Source: Bacteroidia bacterium (GTDB taxonomy: Bacteria; Bacteroidota; Bacteroidia; 2-12-FULL-35-15). Taken from it: a stretch of 64,000 bases of DNA. How positions within the stretch are numbered: the first letter of the stretch is position 1; the number at the start of each line of letters is the position of its first letter. Location: NCBI GenBank assembly GCA_045805205.1, contig JBJMLR010000001.1, positions 120,677 to 184,676 on the forward strand, in the 5' to 3' direction. The translations under genes and the position numbers were made by a program. The notes below the pieces were generated by a model that was not told where the DNA came from, did not search any database, and saw only the letters and a list, made by a program, of their open reading frames with translations. Of this stretch, positions 107 through 57,545 are shown one piece after another.

Positions 107-490
107 ATGAAAAAGAAAACAATTCTCGCATTATTCTTTGCCGGAGCAATGGGCCTGCTGACATTCACCGGTTGTGAAAAAGATGATGATAATTCCGGTT
201 CGACCGGATCATCAACAGGTTCTACCTCGAGCACGACAAGCACCACCGGCTCAACAGGCACTACCAGTAGCACAAGTACAACCGGCTCTACCGGCACAAC
301 AAGTACTACCAGCACTACCGGCTCTACCAGCACGACAAGTACTACCGGTACGACAAGTACAACAAGCAGCACCGGTACAACAAGTACGACAGGAACCAGC
401 AGCACCACGAGCTCTACTAGTACTACCGCCAGCACCGGTACAACCAGCTCAACCAGCACCACCAGCACTACTCCGGGTGCAACGACTTAA
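107..490 (+). CDS. Ser/Thr-rich low-complexity lipoprotein (tandem STTG-type repeats)
   Basis: 127 aa; N-terminus MKKKTILALFFAGAMGLLTFTGC gives a signal peptide plus lipobox Cys; remainder is degenerate (S/T)TTG(S/T) repeats encoded by ~27-nt nucleotide repeats. Confidence 0.45.
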   Translation: MKKKTILALFFAGAMGLLTFTGCEKDDDNSGSTGSSTGSTSSTTSTTGSTGTTSSTSTTGSTGTTSTTSTTGSTSTTSTTGTTSTTSSTGTTSTTGTSSTTSSTSTTASTGTTSSTSTTSTTPGATT

Positions 491-5540: not shown

Positions 5541-5596
5541 TCACCCAGTCACCCAGTCACCCAGTCACCCAGTCACCCAGTCACCCAGTCACCCAG
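5541..5596. repeat. octanucleotide tandem repeat (TCACCCAG)x7
   Basis: 7 perfect head-to-tail copies counted directly; overlaps the last codons and stop of the 5581..6240 gene and lies 23 nt upstream of the M1 peptidase start codon. Confidence 0.95.
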
Positions 5597-6240
5597 TTGT
5601 AGATCCAAAGAAGCACCGGTTTCGACGAGGCTCTTAAGCAGGGATCAACCACTTTCATGAAAGCATTTGAAACAGCCGGACAGCCCCAGCCTTCAGGAAC
5701 ACCTTCCGGGTAGATCTCCGTATCCGAAACATCTTCCCAGGAATGTAAAACGATCTCCCGTTTTTTTGCATTGCTGTTGGTCGGTTCCAATCCATTTAAA
5801 ATATAGTTCACCTTAATTCCCCAGTTACTGTATCCTCTCTTGCCGATCATGAATTTTCCAAGCGAGCTGCAATGACTGTCAGGAACGTTGCTGAACACCG
5901 GCTTGTCTTTTGTATATGTGCTTGCCCAGGGATTTGCACCGCAGCCGTGCGCACACATGCCGGAAGCAAGAACACTGTCTTTTTTCAGATCATAAAGAAA
6001 GGCTCTTTTTTTACCCGAATGGATCGTCATGTCGATGAGAATACAAAACTCAGTATTATAGCCTTTCGTTTTACAAAAGGATCCTGCTTCTCTTGATTTT
6101 GTTTTCAGGCGGGTGGTCGTTTCATCAGTAGTAGTAAAACCTGAAATGCCTGTCAATAATAGCAAAAGAAAACCTCCTGCTTTCGCCCTTCGACTTCGCT
6201 CAGGGAAATACTCAAACAGGAGGTTTTTAATTAATTTCAT
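5581..6240 (-). CDS. murein L,D-transpeptidase catalytic-domain family protein (YkuD_2-like)
   Basis: 219 aa; CAHGCG ... FSNVPDSHCSSLG ... GLEPTNSNA ... IVLHSWEDV ... GWGCPAV pattern resembles PF13645; C-terminal NWVTG is encoded inside the octamer repeat. Confidence 0.5.
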   Translation of the reverse strand: MKLIKNLLFEYFPERSRRAKAGGFLLLLLTGISGFTTTDETTTRLKTKSREAGSFCKTKGYNTEFCILIDMTIHSGKKRAFLYDLKKDSVLASGMCAHGCGANPWASTYTKDKPVFSNVPDSHCSSLGKFMIGKRGYSNWGIKVNYILNGLEPTNSNAKKREIVLHSWEDVSDTEIYPEGVPEGWGCPAVSNAFMKVVDPCLRASSKPVLLWIYNWVTG

Positions 6241-37804: not shown

Positions 37805-37878
37805 AATGTTCTATCTGAAATATTACATCTTACATTTTACTTTTTTCATCTTACGTATTACATCTTACGTATTATGTA

Positions 37879-38967
37879 TCAATGACAATCGCCGGTATAG
37901 TTTCGCGCAGCTTCCACGCCCATCTGTGCCGCTTTGTTCCAGTCGTCACAAGCTCCTTTAGTATCTCTCAGCATTTCCTCTGCGATTCCGCGGTTCAGAT
38001 ATGCTTCACCGTAAGATGAATTGAGCTGGATCGCTTTACTGCAATCATCGATCGCACCCCGGTAGTCCTTCATTTTGTATTTCGCTACAGCGCGGTTATT
38101 GTATGCAAATGCATAATCTGATTTTAGCTGGATCGCTTTATTGAAATCATCGATCGCACCGCTGAAATCTGCATTGTCGATCTTTGCGCTTCCGCGGTTA
38201 TTGTAAGCAACATAGTAATCTTTCTTCTGGTTGATCGCTTCTGTGTAATCGCTGATAGCGCCTCTGAAATCGCCCTGTTTGCGTTTTGCGCTGGCAAGGT
38301 TATTATAAGCGAATGCCATTTCCGAGTTTGCCACGAGTGCTTTGTTGTAGTCTGAAATAGCGCCTTTTATATCATCGAGCTGGCGCTTCGCGCTTCCGCG
38401 GTCATTGTATGCATAGGCATAATCCGGTTTGATCGTGATGGCTTTTGTAAAATCATCGATCGCTCCTTTATAGTCTTTATTTTCAAATTTTACTCCGCCG
38501 CGGTAGTAATACGCTTGCGCATAATCAGGCTTTATCTCCGTGGTTTTGGTGTAGTCGGCAACTGCGTCATCCTTTTTACCCAATGCGTACTTGGCTTGTC
38601 CGCGGCTGAAATAGCTGTCCGCGGTTTCAGCCAATGTGAGCGCTTTATCGAAGTCAGCAATCGCACCATTATAGTCTTTCATCTCAAATTTCGTTGTTCC
38701 GCGGTTGTAGTAGGCGCGTTCAAAATCCGGTTTCAGGGAAATGGCCTGGTTAAAATCGTTCAGGGCTCCGCTGAAATTCCTGGCTGCGAAATCCGAAATT
38801 CCGGTGTTATAGAATTTTTCAGCATCCTGCGAACCGTCATCCAGGATCTTCGCTTTAACAATGGAATCTGTTTGTGCATAGCCAAAGGCCGTAAGTACAC
38901 AACATGCCCCCACCAATAATTTTTTGAGATTCATAGTTTTATCTTTAGAATATGATAAATATAACAA
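37879..38967 (-). CDS. tetratricopeptide repeat protein, secreted
   Basis: About 9 consecutive 34-aa TPRs (A..YNNRG.AK....Y.GAI.D..KAI...P). Confidence 0.8.
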   Translation of the reverse strand: MLYLSYSKDKTMNLKKLLVGACCVLTAFGYAQTDSIVKAKILDDGSQDAEKFYNTGISDFAARNFSGALNDFNQAISLKPDFERAYYNRGTTKFEMKDYNGAIADFDKALTLAETADSYFSRGQAKYALGKKDDAVADYTKTTEIKPDYAQAYYYRGGVKFENKDYKGAIDDFTKAITIKPDYAYAYNDRGSAKRQLDDIKGAISDYNKALVANSEMAFAYNNLASAKRKQGDFRGAISDYTEAINQKKDYYVAYNNRGSAKIDNADFSGAIDDFNKAIQLKSDYAFAYNNRAVAKYKMKDYRGAIDDCSKAIQLNSSYGEAYLNRGIAEEMLRDTKGACDDWNKAAQMGVEAARNYTGDCH

Positions 38968-46789: not shown

Positions 46790-46791
46790 TT

Positions 46792-46855
46792 AGTTCAATA
46801 GTTTATTAGTTCATTAGTTCATTGGTTCATTAGTTCAATAGTTCATAAGTTCACT
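46792..46855. repeat. degenerate octanucleotide tandem repeat (AGTTCATT)x8
   Basis: agttcaat agtttatt agttcatt agttcatt ggttcatt agttcaat agttcata agttcact, starting 3 nt after the GH3 stop codon. Confidence 0.9.
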
Positions 46856-48011: not shown

Positions 48012-48026
48012 CTTATATCTTTTTAA

Positions 48027-48066
48027 CTAACACACTAACACACTAACACACTAACACTTTAACACC
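48027..48066. repeat. octanucleotide tandem repeat (CTAACACA)x5
   Basis: Four perfect copies and one degenerate copy between the start of 47598..48011 and the stop of 48075..48755. Confidence 0.9.
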
Positions 48067-49508: not shown

Positions 49509-49979
49509 ATGAGCACTCTAGTCGGACAAAAAGCCCCTTTATTCTCTCTTAAGGATTCAGATAAGAACCTTGTTAATCTTGCCGACTACAAAGGCAAGAA
49601 CGTCGTATTGCTATTCTTTCCTGCTGCATTCACAGGCACCTGCACCAAAGAGTTGTGCCAAACCCGTGACGAGCTGTCGTACTATAATGATCTGAATGCA
49701 GTTGTATTCGGAATTTCAGTGGACATGCCCTTCACGCTTGCAAAGTTCAAGGAAATGAACAATTACAATTTTCAGCTGCTTTCTGATTTCAATAAAGAAG
49801 CGTCAACTGCCTACAACTGCATCTACAAAGAGTGGATCCACGGTCTGCGTGGCGTCAGCAAGCGCGCTTCATTCGTGATCGATAAGGAAGGTGTTGTCCG
49901 TTTTGAGGAGATCCTGGAAGATGCCGGTTCTTATCCGAACTTCGATGCATTGAAAGATGCTTTGAACAAGCTGAAGTAA
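49509..49979 (+). CDS. peroxiredoxin, BCP/PrxQ-like (AhpC/TSA family)
   Basis: FTGTCTKELC active site with C-x4-C spacing; thioredoxin fold. Confidence 0.75.
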   Translation: MSTLVGQKAPLFSLKDSDKNLVNLADYKGKNVVLLFFPAAFTGTCTKELCQTRDELSYYNDLNAVVFGISVDMPFTLAKFKEMNNYNFQLLSDFNKEASTAYNCIYKEWIHGLRGVSKRASFVIDKEGVVRFEEILEDAGSYPNFDALKDALNKLK

Positions 49980-50002
49980 AAATTGCACCTGATATTCTAA
50001 GA

Positions 50003-50029
50003 AGCCGGACAATGTTCCGGCTTTTTTAT
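50003..50029 (+). terminator. rho-independent terminator after the peroxiredoxin gene
   Basis: gccgga-caatgt-tccggc stem-loop followed by a T6 run. Confidence 0.55.
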
Positions 50030-50040
50030 TGTTTGAATTT

Positions 50041-50650
50041 CATGTGCTCTGCGCTCTCCGCGCCTCTGCGAGACTCCTTTTTTCTGCGGCACTTTACGTA
50101 AACCTCCGTGCCCTCTGCGGTTAAAAACATACACCGCTCTGCGCTCTCTGCGCCTCTGCGAGACTCCTTTTTTCTGCGGTACTTTACGTAAACCTCCGTG
50201 CTCTCTGCGGTTAAAAATATTACACCGCTCTGCGCTCTCCGCGTCTCTGCGAGAATCATTTTCTCTGCACTCGACGTAAACCTCCGTACCCTCTGCAATT
50301 AAAAACATACACCGCTCTGCGCTCTCTGCGCCTTTGCGAGAATCCTTCTCCGCGGTACTTTACGTAAACCTTCGTACCCTCTGCAATTAAAAACAAACAC
50401 CGCTCTGCGCTCTCTGCGCCTCTGCGAGAATCCTTCTCCGCGGTACTCCGCGTAAACCTCCGTGCTCTCTGCGGTTAAAAATATTATACCGCTCTGCGCT
50501 CTCCGCGAGAATCCTTCTCCGCGGTACTCTGCGTAAACCTCCGTGCTCTCTGCGGTTAAAAATATTACACCGCTCTGCGCCCTCCGCGTCTCTGCGAGAA
50601 TCCTTCTCCGCGGTACTCTGCTTAAACCTCAGCGCCCTCTGCGGTTAGAA
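50041..50650. repeat. imperfect ~88-bp tandem repeat array, 7 copies
   Basis: Units start at 50041, 50132, 50223, 50310, 50398, 50488, 50568 (periods 80-91); each carries several CTCTGCG heptamers and a TTTACGTAAA palindrome (intact in 3 copies). Confidence 0.9.
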
Positions 50651-50653
50651 ACA

Positions 50654-51370
50654 CTATACAGTGACTATCGCGAAAGCAGCACCCAAAATGATCATCACGA
50701 ACTTGATCAGGTTGAAGCGGTGGTTCTCGCTCGACTCAAAAAGAATGGTTGTGGAGATGTGAAGAAAGATCCCGACCACTACGGCCATGATCGTATCCGT
50801 ATATTGGGCGAGATTGAACAGCATATTGGCGCCGATCGCATAGCTGGTGAATGTGCCCAGCGGCGTTACCAAAGCAAATACAAAAAGCCAGAATACAGCT
50901 TGTCCTTTGCTGATATGCGAGCCGAGGAGCATGGTCATCAGTGCAACGGCGATCGGGATATTGTGCATGATAATGCCGGTGAGCAAGGAATTGTGCGATT
51001 CCGACGTTCCGTTTGCAAGCGGCATCCCTTCCAGGAAAGAATGAATGGAAAGCCCGATCATCATCGCATACGGAAATGCATTGTGCTGGTGGTCATGTTT
51101 ATGAATGTGGATATGCCCGTGCTCGATCCCTTCCGTAAAGAACTCCAGGAGGATCTGCGCAAAAAAACCGATAAGAATGAAAACACCTATGTTCTTCGTC
51201 TGCGACTGGTAGATCTCAGGAATGAGATGAAGTACGCTGATCGCAAAAAGAAATGCTCCGCTGAAGGAGAGGATGAGCTTGAGGTTTTTGCTGCTGATGT
51301 TAATGTAAAGCACGCTCGTTCCGCTGACGATAACAGAGAGGAAAAGGAGAATGTACATTAATGTGTTCAT
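50654..51370 (-). CDS. ZIP family metal (zinc) transporter, ZupT-like
   Basis: 8 TM; His-rich loop HGHIHIHKHDHQH; HNIPIAVALM signature. Confidence 0.8.
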   Translation of the reverse strand: MNTLMYILLFLSVIVSGTSVLYINISSKNLKLILSFSGAFLFAISVLHLIPEIYQSQTKNIGVFILIGFFAQILLEFFTEGIEHGHIHIHKHDHQHNAFPYAMMIGLSIHSFLEGMPLANGTSESHNSLLTGIIMHNIPIAVALMTMLLGSHISKGQAVFWLFVFALVTPLGTFTSYAIGANMLFNLAQYTDTIMAVVVGIFLHISTTILFESSENHRFNLIKFVMIILGAAFAIVTV

Positions 51371-51383
51371 AGTTTCATATTTA

Positions 51384-51469
51384 CGTCATCGCGAGGAAGG
51401 TACGACCGAAGCGATCTCTTGATAAAAACAAGATTGCTTCTCCGCCGGCGGGCGGCTCGTCATGACGGG
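51384..51469. repeat. nested-hairpin intergenic repeat element, copy 3 of 3
   Basis: cgtcatcgcgagg ... gaagcgatctcttgataaaaacaagattgcttctccgccggcgggcggctcgtcatgacgg; same architecture as 35652 and 42184. Confidence 0.7.
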
Positions 51470-51477
51470 TAAAAAAA

Positions 51478-53841: not shown

Positions 53842-56800
53842 TTGAATAGATTTTGCTCCATATACACCCGCATTTGCCTTTGCATAACACTGGTTTCCGG
53901 CGTTATTCCGGCCTCTTTTTCACAGGAATTTAAGTTCAGCCACATCGGATCAGATCAAGGCTTGTCGATGGGTGTGGTTAACTGCGTTCTCCAGGATAGC
54001 CGCGGATTCATGTGGTTCGGGACACAGGACGGACTGAATAAATACGATGGGTACAACATCACTGTTTTTAAGAATAACCAGCTCGATTCCAATACGCTTT
54101 CGAATAATTTCATCAACTGCCTGTACGAGGATAAAAATGGCGAGCTTCTCGTCGGTACCAACGGCGGCGGTTTTGATTCGTATAACCTCAGCACCGGTAA
54201 ATTCAAGCATCACATCGGCTCGGGAGCCAACAAAAACAGCCTGAGCAACAACAATGTAAAATCACTGCTGGAGGACAGAGACGGAATGCTCTGGATCGGT
54301 ACGGATGATGGCCTGAACAGTTTTGATCCGAAAACCAGGCGGTATTCGCGCTACCTGAACGACAGTAAAATCGTCAATACCATTTCCAGCAACAATGCAT
54401 GGTGCCTTCACGAAGGAAGCGATGGAAAGCTCTGGATCGGAACGTACGGAGGAGGATTGAACTCATTCGATAAGAAAACAGGAAAGTTCGAACATTTTTA
54501 CCAGTTCAACGACCGGGGTGAATTGATGTTCGACAACATTAATCTCATCCGCTCCATTTATGAAGATGCGGACGGAATATTCTGGATCGGAACGTACGGA
54601 GAAGGTGTTCAGATCTTTGATCCGCATTCGGGCCAGTTCATCAGGAATCTCCGCAATAATCCGAATGATCCCAATTCCCTGAACAATAACCAGGTGATGA
54701 GCATCACCGAAGATATGAACGGGATGCTGTGGATGGCGACGTACGGAGATGGCTTGAATCTCTACAATAAAAAAACCGGTCGCTTCAGAAGCATCACCTA
54801 CGATGAAAAAAATCCATCCGGTATTTCCAGCAACCAAATCAAGTGTGTGTATCACGATAAGGTCGGATCGGTATGGATCGGCACCGAAGGCGGAGGTGTG
54901 AACGCGCATTTCCGTGCGTCCAATAAATTTAAATTCTATCGCAATTCCGGGGAAGCAAACGGCTTAAAAAGTAACATCGTTTATGCATTGCAGGAGGACA
55001 AGGACGGCTTGCTCTGGATCGGAACGGGGCATGGCGGGCTGACCACTTTCGACCGGGAGAATAATATTTTTCAGCATTATCCGCAATTGTCTACATCCGG
55101 TAATAATTCGATCCTTTCTCTGTGTGAGGACCGCGATGGGATCATCTGGGTAGGAACCTGGGGCGACGGTCTGAATTCATACGATAAGAAGACGAAGCGG
55201 GTGACGAATTACGAGCAGAAGCTGAAGCAGGCAAAGGAAGCAAACGATGCGGTATTCGATCCCGTGAGCGCTGCTACGATCGTTTCGATCATGGAAGATT
55301 CTGAAGGAAAGATCTGGGTAGGAACCTATGGTGCAGGCGTTTTCGTTTACAATAAAAAGACAGGAAAATTCACTAATTATGATGCATCCAAAGGTTTGAG
55401 CATCGATAACGTTTATAATGTTTATGAAGATGGTCAGAAGAATTACTGGATCGCAACGGATGGAGGAGGAGTTGTAAAATACAATGAATATGCTAATGTT
55501 TTCAGAATCTATGCGCGTGATGAAAAAGCGAACAGCATCAGTTCCAATTCGGTGAATTGCAGCTATGAAGATAAAGATGGAAACATGTGGTTCGGAACAT
55601 CAAATGGCCTGAACCGGCTGGATGTGAAGACAGGAAAATTCAGTGCGTACTTCGAAAAGGATGGATTGCCGAATGATTTTATATACTCGATCCTGCCCGA
55701 CAGCAAAGGAAATCTCTGGATGAGCACGAATAAAGGTGTCTCCAAATTTAATCCGAACATGACGAACGAGAACGGATCCGCGTTCAGAAATTATGATGTC
55801 AATGATGGTTTGCAGGGACTTGAATTTAACCAGGGTGCTTATTATCAAAGCAAAGGAGGAGAGATCTTCCTGGGAGGAGTGAACGGCTTCAATGCGTTCT
55901 TTCCCGATAAGATCCAGGATAATCCGAACATTCCGCCGGTGCACATCATTTCATATAAACGTTTCGGAACCGAAGTAATGCTCGATACACTGATCTACGA
56001 CAAAAAATACCTGGAGCTTTCCTATAAGCAGAACTTCTTCTCTTTCGATTTTGTTGCGCTGGACTACCAGATGCCGGGGAAGAATAAATATTCCTATAAG
56101 CTGGAAGGAGTGGACGATGACTGGTCGCCGCCGAGCACAACCCGTTACGCAAGCTATACCGAGCTGAGCGGAGGTGATTACATTCTTAGGGTCCGGGGAG
56201 CCAATAACGACGGGACCTGGAACAATGACGGCGTAACGCTGTACATCCGGATCAATCCGCCGTTCTGGAAAACGAAATGGTTCTATGCTCTGAGTGTTCT
56301 TACGATCATAGCAGGATTTGCGGGATTTGTGAGATACAGGACCAGCGCGATCAAACGGGAGAAGAAGATCCTTGAAGAGAAAGTGGAAGAGCGGACACAG
56401 GAGCTGGCGCAGAAGAACAAGGATATTACCAGCAGCATTCAATATGCGAAACGGATCCAGCTTGCGATCCTGCCGCCGCTGGAGCAGATCTACAAATATT
56501 TTCCGACTTCCTTTGTGCTGTACAAACCGAAGGACATTGTCAGCGGCGATTTCTATTGGTTCGGAGTGAAGGACGGCAAGCGCATCATTGCGGCTGTAGA
56601 TTGTACGGGTCATGGAGTTCCCGGGGCCTTCATGAGTATGATCGGACATAATTTATTGAACCAGATCATCGGGGAAAACGGGATCACGGAACCGGATGAA
56701 ATCCTGAATGCGCTGCACAGAGGCGTGCAGTCGGCATTGCGACAGGGAACAAATATAGTGGACACGAGCGATGGTATGGATGTGGCGATCTGCTGTATTG

Positions 56801-57177
56801 ATGAAAGCAATGCTGAATTGACCTATGCGGGAGCTTATCGTCCGTTGTTTATTGTCAGGAACGGGGTGCTGGACAAGATCGAAGCGGATAAGAATCCTAT
56901 CGGGGGCTCTCAGCTGGATGCGGACCGGAAATTTACAGCTCATAAGGTAGTGATCGGTAAAGGAGATACTATTTATATGGCTTCCGATGGGTATGCCGAT
57001 CAGTTTGGCGGCGACAAAGGCAAAAAATTCATGATAAAACGCTTCCATGAGCTCATTCTGTCTATGCAGCAGGAGCCGATGGAAGAGCAGTGCCGTATAC
57101 TGGATCGTACATTTGAGGAGTGGCGCGGGGTTTATCAGCAGGTGGACGATATCCTGGTGATCGGGATTCGTTTCTGA
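53842..57177 (+). CDS. periplasmic Reg_prop beta-propeller plus Y_Y_Y sensor, TM, PP2C/SpoIIE serine phosphatase
   Basis: 1111 aa; repeated D..G.(L/M)W(I/F)GT..G(L/V)N.(Y/F)D propeller blades; Y_Y_Y domain; single TM (ALSVLTIIAGFAGFV); PP2C motifs DIVSGDFYW, AAVDCTGHGVPGAFMS, DGYADQFGG; start is TTG per the ORF track and is uncertain. Confidence 0.75.
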   Translation: MNRFCSIYTRICLCITLVSGVIPASFSQEFKFSHIGSDQGLSMGVVNCVLQDSRGFMWFGTQDGLNKYDGYNITVFKNNQLDSNTLSNNFINCLYEDKNGELLVGTNGGGFDSYNLSTGKFKHHIGSGANKNSLSNNNVKSLLEDRDGMLWIGTDDGLNSFDPKTRRYSRYLNDSKIVNTISSNNAWCLHEGSDGKLWIGTYGGGLNSFDKKTGKFEHFYQFNDRGELMFDNINLIRSIYEDADGIFWIGTYGEGVQIFDPHSGQFIRNLRNNPNDPNSLNNNQVMSITEDMNGMLWMATYGDGLNLYNKKTGRFRSITYDEKNPSGISSNQIKCVYHDKVGSVWIGTEGGGVNAHFRASNKFKFYRNSGEANGLKSNIVYALQEDKDGLLWIGTGHGGLTTFDRENNIFQHYPQLSTSGNNSILSLCEDRDGIIWVGTWGDGLNSYDKKTKRVTNYEQKLKQAKEANDAVFDPVSAATIVSIMEDSEGKIWVGTYGAGVFVYNKKTGKFTNYDASKGLSIDNVYNVYEDGQKNYWIATDGGGVVKYNEYANVFRIYARDEKANSISSNSVNCSYEDKDGNMWFGTSNGLNRLDVKTGKFSAYFEKDGLPNDFIYSILPDSKGNLWMSTNKGVSKFNPNMTNENGSAFRNYDVNDGLQGLEFNQGAYYQSKGGEIFLGGVNGFNAFFPDKIQDNPNIPPVHIISYKRFGTEVMLDTLIYDKKYLELSYKQNFFSFDFVALDYQMPGKNKYSYKLEGVDDDWSPPSTTRYASYTELSGGDYILRVRGANNDGTWNNDGVTLYIRINPPFWKTKWFYALSVLTIIAGFAGFVRYRTSAIKREKKILEEKVEERTQELAQKNKDITSSIQYAKRIQLAILPPLEQIYKYFPTSFVLYKPKDIVSGDFYWFGVKDGKRIIAAVDCTGHGVPGAFMSMIGHNLLNQIIGENGITEPDEILNALHRGVQSALRQGTNIVDTSDGMDVAICCIDESNAELTYAGAYRPLFIVRNGVLDKIEADKNPIGGSQLDADRKFTAHKVVIGKGDTIYMASDGYADQFGGDKGKKFMIKRFHELILSMQQEPMEEQCRILDRTFEEWRGVYQQVDDILVIGIRF

Positions 57178-57386
57178 TCAGAATGATCGGCGAAAATGAC
57201 CTTCCACCAGGATGAGTCAGCCTGCCCAGAGTCCGCAGTAGCGGATCGAAGGGATATCCTGGTGATCGGGATCCGTTTCTGATCAGAATGATCGGCGAAA
57301 ATGATCTTACACCAGGATGAGTCAGCCTGCCCAGAGTCCGCAGCAGCGGATCGAAGGGATATCCTGGTGATCGGGATCCGTTTCTG
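57148..57386. repeat. 105-bp tandem duplication (about 2.3 copies) spanning the last 30 nt of the PP2C gene
   Basis: gatatcctggtgatcggga(t/c)(t/c)cgtttctga recurs at 57148, 57253 and 57358; each full unit has the 12-bp palindrome TTCTGATCAGAA. Confidence 0.9.
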
Positions 57387-57545
57387 AGGTCTTGCCTGCA
57401 CATTTTTCCATTTCTCCGCGACTTGTTTGGCAAATTGTAAAATTTAGCTATATTTGAGGCTAGGATAAGATTTTTAACGACGAAACTCAATAAACAAAGG
57501 TCCGCCCCGCGGGTCCAATTGTGTAAATCATAAAAACCTGACAAA

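Follow-up and report, generated by a model that had tools for sequence, protein, structure and literature searches.

A probable lineage-specific intergenic minisatellite of 88-bp units between convergent peroxiredoxin and ZIP transporter genes in a Bacteroidia bacterium

In a Bacteroidia bacterium, two convergent housekeeping genes, one for a peroxiredoxin (Prx) and one for a ZIP metal transporter, are separated by a spacer that is occupied by seven head-to-tail copies of a sequence of about 88 bp. Within the 64,000-nucleotide stretch of DNA analyzed here (the window), this array is non-coding and has no demonstrable sequence-specific job. It is probably a lineage-specific minisatellite that arose by VNTR-type tandem duplication, and it most likely belongs, as an orphan, to a familiar class of sequence, the bacterial intergenic minisatellites. 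The coordinates of the array, its units, and the surrounding features are collected in Table 1.

Table 1. Features of the array, its flanks, and other tandem repeats of the window (window coordinates).
Feature	Position	Strand	Description	Basis
Octamer array	5541-5597		(TCACCCAG)x7, near-perfect	TRF
Octamer array	46790-46853		(TTAGTTCA)x8, near-perfect	TRF
Octamer array	48026-48065		(ACTAACAC)x5, near-perfect	TRF
Prx gene	49509..49979	+	AhpC/TSA peroxiredoxin, 156 aa; convergent with ZIP	Pfam PF00578, E = 1e-34
Prx intrinsic terminator	49999..50034 (stem 49999-50026)	+	11 pairs, then T-run; left array boundary	Inverted repeat I1
Spurious ORFs over array	49997-50308, 50026-50298, 50256-50396	-		ORF list
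Whole tandem array	50041..50655	.	Seven head-to-tail units of ~88 bp	TRF, unit profile, composition
Unit 1	50041..50131	+	91 bp; degenerate 5' edge (CATGTG, not CACCG); has TTTACGTAAA	
Unit 2	50132..50222	+	91 bp; 90% identity to units 1 and 5; has TTTACGTAAA	
Unit 3	50223..50309	+	87 bp; CTCGACGTAAA variant; GCAAT variant at 3' end	
Unit 4	50310..50397	+	88 bp; has TTTACGTAAA; GCAAT variant in common with unit 3	
Unit 5	50398..50487	+	90 bp; palindrome replaced by CTCCGCGTAAA	
Unit 6	50488..50567	+	80 bp; exactly one 8-nt sub-repeat missing; palindrome replaced by CTCTGCGTAAA	
Unit 7	50568..50655	+	88 bp; most diverged; reaches into ZIP stop (cta 50654-50656, + strand)	
Internal sub-repeat (example)	50137..50160	+	Three CTCTGCG(C/CT) copies, period 8-9	TRF period-9 rows, heptamer map
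TTTACGTAAA palindrome	50093..50102, 50183-50192, 50359-50368	.	3 copies; variable position in unit	
ZIP gene	50654..51370	-	ZIP metal transporter, 238 aa	Pfam PF02535
Tandem duplication	57148-57387		105-bp unit, 2.3 copies, 97% identity; includes last codons and stop of upstream gene (…DILVIGIRF, stop)	

A sequence-only reading of the window had described a seven-copy, ~88-bp array between convergent peroxiredoxin and ZIP genes, preceded by a good terminator. Each part of this description holds, the gene assignments by Pfam and the terminator by its 11-pair stem and T-run. TRF places the array at 50046–50653 and reports it as the single dominant one, with a period of 88, 6.9 copies, 85% matches, 4% indels, and a score of 774. 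A profile HMM built from the units returns seven matches in register, at the unit starts given in Table 1, with E-values of 1e-23 to 1e-28. The array is therefore real repetition far beyond chance. Identity between the units had been put at 85–90%; measured pairwise and counting gaps, it ranges from 72 to 90% with a mean of 82%, corresponding to differences of 10–28%.

The array fills the whole gap between the Prx terminator on its left and the ZIP stop codon on its right, leaving about 14 nt from the terminator to the first unit and 0 nt from the last unit to the ZIP stop. Both neighboring genes are undisturbed: the ZIP C-terminus is intact, with 100% coverage against homologues and the conserved …VTV end before the stop codon. 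A terminator scan of the minus strand, from the ZIP stop to the far side of the array, finds no intrinsic terminator. The ZIP transcript therefore probably runs on through the array and includes it as a purine/G-rich 3' tail of ~615 nt. In the other direction, Rho could be loaded, by the C-rich, G-poor plus strand of the array, onto transcripts that escape the Prx terminator. The Bacteroidota -7 motif TAnnTTTG is absent from both strands of the array.

The array also stands out in composition. Its GC content is 53.5% versus 45% for the window, and its plus strand, with 63% pyrimidine, contains 35% C and 18.5% G and has a GC skew of about -0.3 throughout. On the same strand, there are 18.5 YC dinucleotides per 100 nt, versus 11.7 in the window.

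The 88-bp unit is built hierarchically from smaller repeats. It opens with 25 nt made up of three tandem copies of CTCTGCG(C/CT) with a period of 8–9, and this three-copy block recurs at the start of every unit (a second instance lies at 50403–50426); TRF calls such blocks as separate small arrays. The block is followed by degenerate copies (TTCTCCGCGG), by the position at which some units carry a palindrome, by CTCTCTGCGG, and by an AT-rich 3' end (TTAAAAATATTA). Exact CTCTGCG heptamers number 21 on the plus strand of the array, 0 on its minus strand, and 2 in the rest of the window. Allowing up to one mismatch, 41 sites are found in 615 bp, all in a single orientation, which amounts to about six per unit and not the three or four originally claimed. 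Their spacing is irregular, at 8, 9, 16–18, 10, and 21–31 bp.

The palindrome was correctly described as intact in three units and degenerate in four. TTTACGTAAA occurs three times in the 64-kb window, always within the array, in units 1, 2, and 4. In the remaining units, these columns hold CTCGACGTAAA (unit 3), CTCCGCGTAAA (unit 5), CTCTGCGTAAA (unit 6), and CTCTGCTTAAA (unit 7). Because only three of the seven units carry it, and because units 5 and 6 align there with another copy of the heptamer, TTTACGTAAA is a variable heptamer position and no conserved operator.

The distribution of variants among the units is the one expected if copies were added locally, step by step, and then drifted. 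Column 56 separates units 1–4 from units 5–7, columns 42 and 45 separate units 1–3 from units 4–7, and neighboring units have variants in common, as with GCAAT in units 3 and 4. Twenty of the 28 variable columns differ by transitions only. These features, the exact loss of one 8-nt sub-repeat from unit 6, and the absence of the array from syntenic relatives all support a minisatellite subject to slippage, one of the possibilities raised from the letters alone. Mean column identity is 86% across the period; since the entire 88 bp is conserved between units, there are no unique spacers, and the array is not CRISPR-like, in agreement with the initial judgment.

No protein is encoded by the array. 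Stop codons break all six frames across it, and the reading frame shifts between units because most of them have a length that is not divisible by 3. Gene callers routinely translate tandem repeats of this kind, and protein collections were for this reason searched with the frames of the array. Neither the three minus-strand nor the three plus-strand frames have a homologue among 5.8 billion proteins (word-index search), and the 103-aa array ORF gives 0 matches among 1.84 billion representatives (exhaustive phmmer). Spurious peptides of the 'LRLCG/SAVK' type are familiar from Bacteroidota, and these searches detect no homology of the array ORFs to any of them. A protein-coding tandem repeat was accordingly rejected as a candidate, given a period that is not a multiple of 3, interrupted frames, and no homologues.

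The neighborhood of the array is conserved in related bacteria. Scanning GTDB genomes with the ZIP protein identifies 17 lake and groundwater MAGs of Bacteroidota, with ZIP identities of 61–84%, and the gene order SpoIIE-MT-ZIP-Prx-(MIP)-OmpH-PRA-PH-LysE is kept in most relatives. The ZIP-Prx spacer measures 74–3158 bp in the GTDB relatives and 28–3158 bp over all relatives, and the unit is present in none of them. Its contents differ widely from one relative to another, for example REP-like hairpins (CCCCTCTCC...GGAGAGGGG; GGTGTCCGCC..GGCGGACGG) or a terminator alone. The closest relative has a ZIP protein (P0001) with 90% amino acid identity, the best match in the 5.8-billion-protein collection. 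Exact copies of the Prx, ZIP, MIP, and PRA-PH proteins are missing from the collection, and no relative at strain level is on record. Over ~20 kb, the window aligns collinearly with contigs L020 and L021 of the closest relative at 76–84% nucleotide identity; these have the same gene order, with a ZIP-Prx spacer of 52 bp that contains one hairpin. The blastn alignments to these contigs end exactly at window positions 49980 and 50655. In another relative (L023/L024), the spacer is 28 bp long.

A search of relatives for the unit, which the sequence-only reading had called for, yields nothing: the unit profile has no match at E ≤ 0.1 in the syntenic loci of 21 related Bacteroidota contigs, 228 kb in total, and none of 19 related loci examined contains a CTCTGCG cluster. 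Because the unit is missing from all related loci, the array is a gain in the window's own lineage. The idea that the unit descends from the spacer of the ancestor or, through the common TTACACCG, from the 3' end of ZIP was rejected. Local alignment of the unit with the spacers of relatives and with the window flanks gives no significant similarity, with scores at shuffle level.

Searches beyond the related loci return no second copy either. In the 64-kb window, the unit profile finds nothing else below E = 6. The DNA pattern GCTCTGCGCTCTCYGCGN{20,45}GTAAACCT, which matches six of the seven units, has 0 matches in GTDB species genomes (one genome per species) and 0 in IMG/VR; in JGI metagenomes, it has two chance matches, both in unrelated sequence without an array. 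A second DNA pattern has 0 matches in IMG/VR viral contigs. With the 'distant' setting, blastn gives a single 30-nt chance match among plasmids and none among phages. Rfam 15 has 0 matches to the whole window at the gathering score, and an E-value scan of 49900–50800 gives two sub-threshold matches only, both anchored on the terminator hairpin. A literature search for the CTCTGCG heptamer retrieves primer sequences only. The inverted repeats at the array are limited to the terminator and the palindromes, with no terminal inverted repeats.

A simple sequence of events may account for such a structure. A short CTCTGCG(C) heptamer or octamer tract would have formed just past the ZIP stop codon, in parallel with similar 7–8-mer tracts that lie just 3' of other stop codons in the same genome and in relatives. 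After this tract had degenerated, a segment of ~88 bp with several motifs would have been copied head-to-tail up to seven times, by slipped-strand mispairing or unequal recombination, and the copies would afterwards have drifted apart to ~82% identity. Some findings count against a minisatellite. The GC content of the array is unusual for neutral intergenic DNA in a window of 45% GC, and both a fold z of about -3 in three of the four plus-strand units tested and the compensatory changes in unit 7 leave some room for structural constraint.

Among other explanations, the array may be a low-copy dispersed element, either a MITE with an internal minisatellite or a REP-type element, that arrived by transposition or recombination and not by local duplication. 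This origin is unlikely. It would fit the ZIP-Prx spacer of relatives, which is a hotspot of small repeat elements with REP-like hairpins in four loci (L006, L007, L009, and L010), and it would fit an array GC above that of the window. Moreover, BrickBuilt elements number 19 copies per 2.35 Mb (PMC4596501), a density at which one copy in 64 kb is unremarkable. However, the array has no terminal inverted repeats, its flanks of ~14 nt and 0 nt leave no room for a leader or tail, and its spurious ORFs have no relatives. Membership of a dispersed REP/MITE family had been named at the outset as the result that would overturn the first interpretation, and no other copy of the unit is found in the window, the relatives, GTDB genomes, JGI metagenomes, or IMG/VR. 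That the repeats are binding sites for a protein is highly improbable, whether as operators of a TTACGTAA-binding regulator, as the sequence-only reading had suggested, or as iteron- or centromere-like CTCTGCG repeats. The abundance of exact and near copies of one heptamer (21 and 41), all in one orientation, and the confinement of TTACGTAA to the array within the window are what such sites would lead one to expect, but the palindrome columns vary freely, with three of seven units intact, and the heptamers are irregularly spaced. The array also sits between two 3' ends without a promoter motif (no TAnnTTTG), it is flanked by syntenically conserved housekeeping genes and not by any gene for partition, replication, or regulation, and heptamer clusters occur in no related locus. 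Least credible is an assembly artefact, in which a repeat was wrongly expanded or a chimera formed. The array is indeed missing from all relatives, but its units differ by 10–28% and have unit-specific indels, so that each is individually anchored, and it joins its flanks cleanly: the terminator on the left is intact, as are the ZIP stop codon and C-terminus on the right.

Two further explanations assign the array a role at the RNA level. As a transcription insulator, its plus-strand RNA, 615 nt long, C-rich, and G-poor, would form a Rho-loading zone against Prx read-through antisense into ZIP, and the array would be maintained for this purpose. The C excess, negative GC skew, and raised YC frequency described above fit the composition of a rut site, and the array lies directly downstream of the Prx terminator. 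We nevertheless consider this quite unlikely: Prx already has a strong intrinsic terminator, relatives do with spacers of 28–74 bp and one hairpin, and the RNA made in the ZIP direction is G-rich, the opposite of a Rho-binding site. A functional RNA is very unlikely. It would take the form of small plus-strand hairpins, each with a conserved UAAACCUC(C) loop, or of a regulatory ZIP 3'-UTR on the minus strand. Three of the four plus-strand units tested fold with z = -3.0 to -3.3, and the whole plus strand has z = -5.95. In addition, the loop TAAACCT is invariant, and a 4-bp helix beneath it (columns 55–58/67–70) remains paired despite two double changes in unit 7, with G-U intermediates seen in units 5 and 6. 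This helix under the UAAACCUC loop leaves a low probability for the structured RNA suggested from the letters alone. The rest of the evidence goes the other way. No Rfam family matches, and the two small hairpins proposed by RNAalifold have a covariation term of 0.04 kcal/mol. Paired cells amount to 95.6% versus 93.3% in shuffles, and the pair statistics are reached by 23–26 of 500 shuffles (23 of 500 for the covariation score), a frequency that falls within the range of false positives stated for this tool on related sequences. Units 3 and 4 break the outer helix, quasi-palindromic CYGCGG and GCGC stretches of the heptamer itself supply most of the pairing, the evidence from seven paralogous units is not independent, and no relative has a homologous element. 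A separate hairpin across unit junctions (GCGGT...ACCGC) was rejected, as it is broken without compensation in units 3 and 4.

The minisatellite interpretation can also be set against known repeat systems. REP/BIME elements of enterobacteria lie between convergent genes and near stop codons, as imperfect palindromes of ~35 nt in hundreds of dispersed copies. The array resembles them in location, but its unit is neither palindromic nor dispersed in the window. A REP/BIME-type element was rejected on these grounds and on the strand asymmetry of the unit (CTCTGCG 21 on the plus strand versus 0 on the minus strand). More generally, the array lacks the testable defining features of a MITE, REP, CRISPR, or operator, whereas it shares with minisatellites a spacer-less, head-to-tail unit within the 10–100-bp range that does not code for protein.

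Closest in kind are the MIRU/VNTR loci of Mycobacterium tuberculosis. MIRUs are described as minisatellites that lie mainly between genes and are believed to be part of operon transcripts (PMC3635867). Like them, the array is intergenic, has imperfect units of tens of bp, lies at gene ends, and is probably co-transcribed with its neighbors; unlike them, it is known here from one locus, while MIRUs form a many-locus family defined by copy-number variation between strains. Within the Bacteroidota, BrickBuilt of Porphyromonas gingivalis has 23-nt units, a leader and tail with terminal inverted repeats, 19 copies, and promoter activity (PMC4596501). Both are strictly intergenic, consist of imperfect tandem copies without spacers, and have spurious ORFs called over them, but the array has an 88-bp unit and lacks terminal inverted repeats, a leader and tail, a second copy in the window, and a promoter motif. 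The STRRs of filamentous cyanobacteria are 7-bp intergenic tandem repeats of unknown function (PMC2670836). Their tracts resemble the tandem CTCTGCG(C) sub-structure of the array and the separate octamer arrays of the window. However, STRRs are simple heptamer runs in another phylum, with few families that recur genome-wide, and the heptamers of the array are embedded in an 88-bp unit. The array has no sequence in common with MIRU, BrickBuilt, or STRR. In practical terms, it is a possible strain-typing marker, and it is a warning that ORFs called over such sequence are spurious.

Near-perfect octamer arrays and a 105-bp duplication also occur in the window (Table 1), the 105-bp unit being single-copy in contig L020 of the closest relative. 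Together, they indicate that this genome yields short-period and ~100-bp duplications at gene 3' ends, and the 88-bp array resembles an older outcome of these processes on a larger scale, with a CTCTGCG(C) tract as its seed.

Relatives have different 7–8-mer arrays at equivalent sites, with octamer sequences that vary by site and species. Examples are (AGGTGATG)x12.8 between OmpH and PRA-PH (L006) and (GATGTGAT)x11 between MT and ZIP (L013). Considering the window and its relatives, an upstream stop codon lies no more than 16 nt from the start in 9 of the 13 non-coding 7–8-mer arrays; the 88-bp array likewise begins right after the ZIP stop codon. This side observation of repeats after stop codons is a more interesting lead than the array itself.

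These Bacteroidota have non-canonical promoters and little Shine-Dalgarno pairing. The array is perhaps the largest case of a habit among freshwater and groundwater Bacteroidota of placing tandem repeats after stop codons, at conserved intergenic positions and with species-specific sequences. Such repeats would not be neutral and would serve as a repeat-based 3'-end element, acting as a terminator substitute, a protector of mRNA ends, or a read-through trap. Although we consider this a long shot, the pattern would, if general and functional, amount to an unrecognized way of organizing gene 3' ends in these bacteria. In a variant of this idea, the plus-strand hairpins with their invariant UAAACCUC loop may be the functional module. 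Instances of the habit include the octamer arrays of the window and of four related loci (L006, L011, L012, and L013), along with the 105-bp duplication at a gene 3' end.

The spacer between the convergent genes for the ZIP metal transporter and the AhpC/TSA peroxiredoxin (Prx) is a hotspot for insertions, since it measures anywhere between 28 and 3158 bp in related Bacteroidota. In relatives, other small repeat elements occupy this spacer (listed in the table), among them the hairpins CCCCTCTCCnnnGGAGAGGGG and GGTGTCCGCCnnGGCGGACGGATGGGG and, in contig L006, a 23-bp repeat in 2.4 copies. In the window, the gap from the methyltransferase stop to the ZIP start contains a REP-like element, an imperfect palindrome reading cgtcatcgcgaggaagg…gatctcttgataaaaacaagattgcttctcc…ctcgtcatgacg. 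It presumably resembles a repeat that is widespread in Bacteroidota.

At the 3' end of the SpoIIE-domain gene (1111 aa), a 105-bp unit is present in 2.3 tandem copies with 97% identity. The unit comprises the final codons and stop of this gene (…DILVIGIRF*) followed by ~75 bp of downstream sequence, and it is single-copy in L020, from the closest relative. This repeat looks like a recent duplication of the gene 3' end. Contig L007, from a related MAG, carries a 93-bp repeat (2.3 copies, 99% identity) close to the end of its SpoIIE-type gene, which is a further ~100-bp tandem duplication within the clade.

Short intergenic spacers in the window and its relatives are also filled by near-perfect 7–8-mer tandem arrays, such as (TCACCCAG)x7, (TTAGTTCA)x8 and (ACTAACAC)x5 in the window and (AGGTGATG)x12.8 at the OmpH/PRA-PH site of L006. 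These arrays are similar to the STRR tracts of cyanobacteria. As a raw count, 9 of 13 non-coding arrays start ≤16 nt from the upstream stop codon, a closeness that is partly forced by the shortness of the spacers. Array sequence differs between related species at equivalent sites, including OmpH/PRA-PH.

Two other repeats in the window are both probably coding: a 102-bp unit in 2.2 tandem copies (76–80% identity), close to the 3' end of a minus-strand ORF, and a 9/27/36-bp periodic repeat within an ORF at the window start.

Positions of repeats and associated features
Feature	Contig	Position
ZIP–Prx spacer with small repeats	L006	3761-4102
	L007	6708-7089
	L009	6708-6927
	L010	1169-1393
REP-like element	window	51378-51470
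SpoIIE-domain gene	window	53842-57177
105-bp repeat	window	57148-57387
105-bp unit, single copy	L020	3898-3930 region
93-bp repeat	L007	3377-3591
7–8-mer array	window	5541-5597
	window	37823-37868
	window	46790-46853
	window	48026-48065
	L006	6031-6132
	L013	888-977
	L011	5929-5957
	L012	8757-8785
	L005	726-772
102-bp repeat	window	38017-38240
ORF with 102-bp repeat	window	37879-38967 (-)
9/27/36-bp repeat	window	239-391
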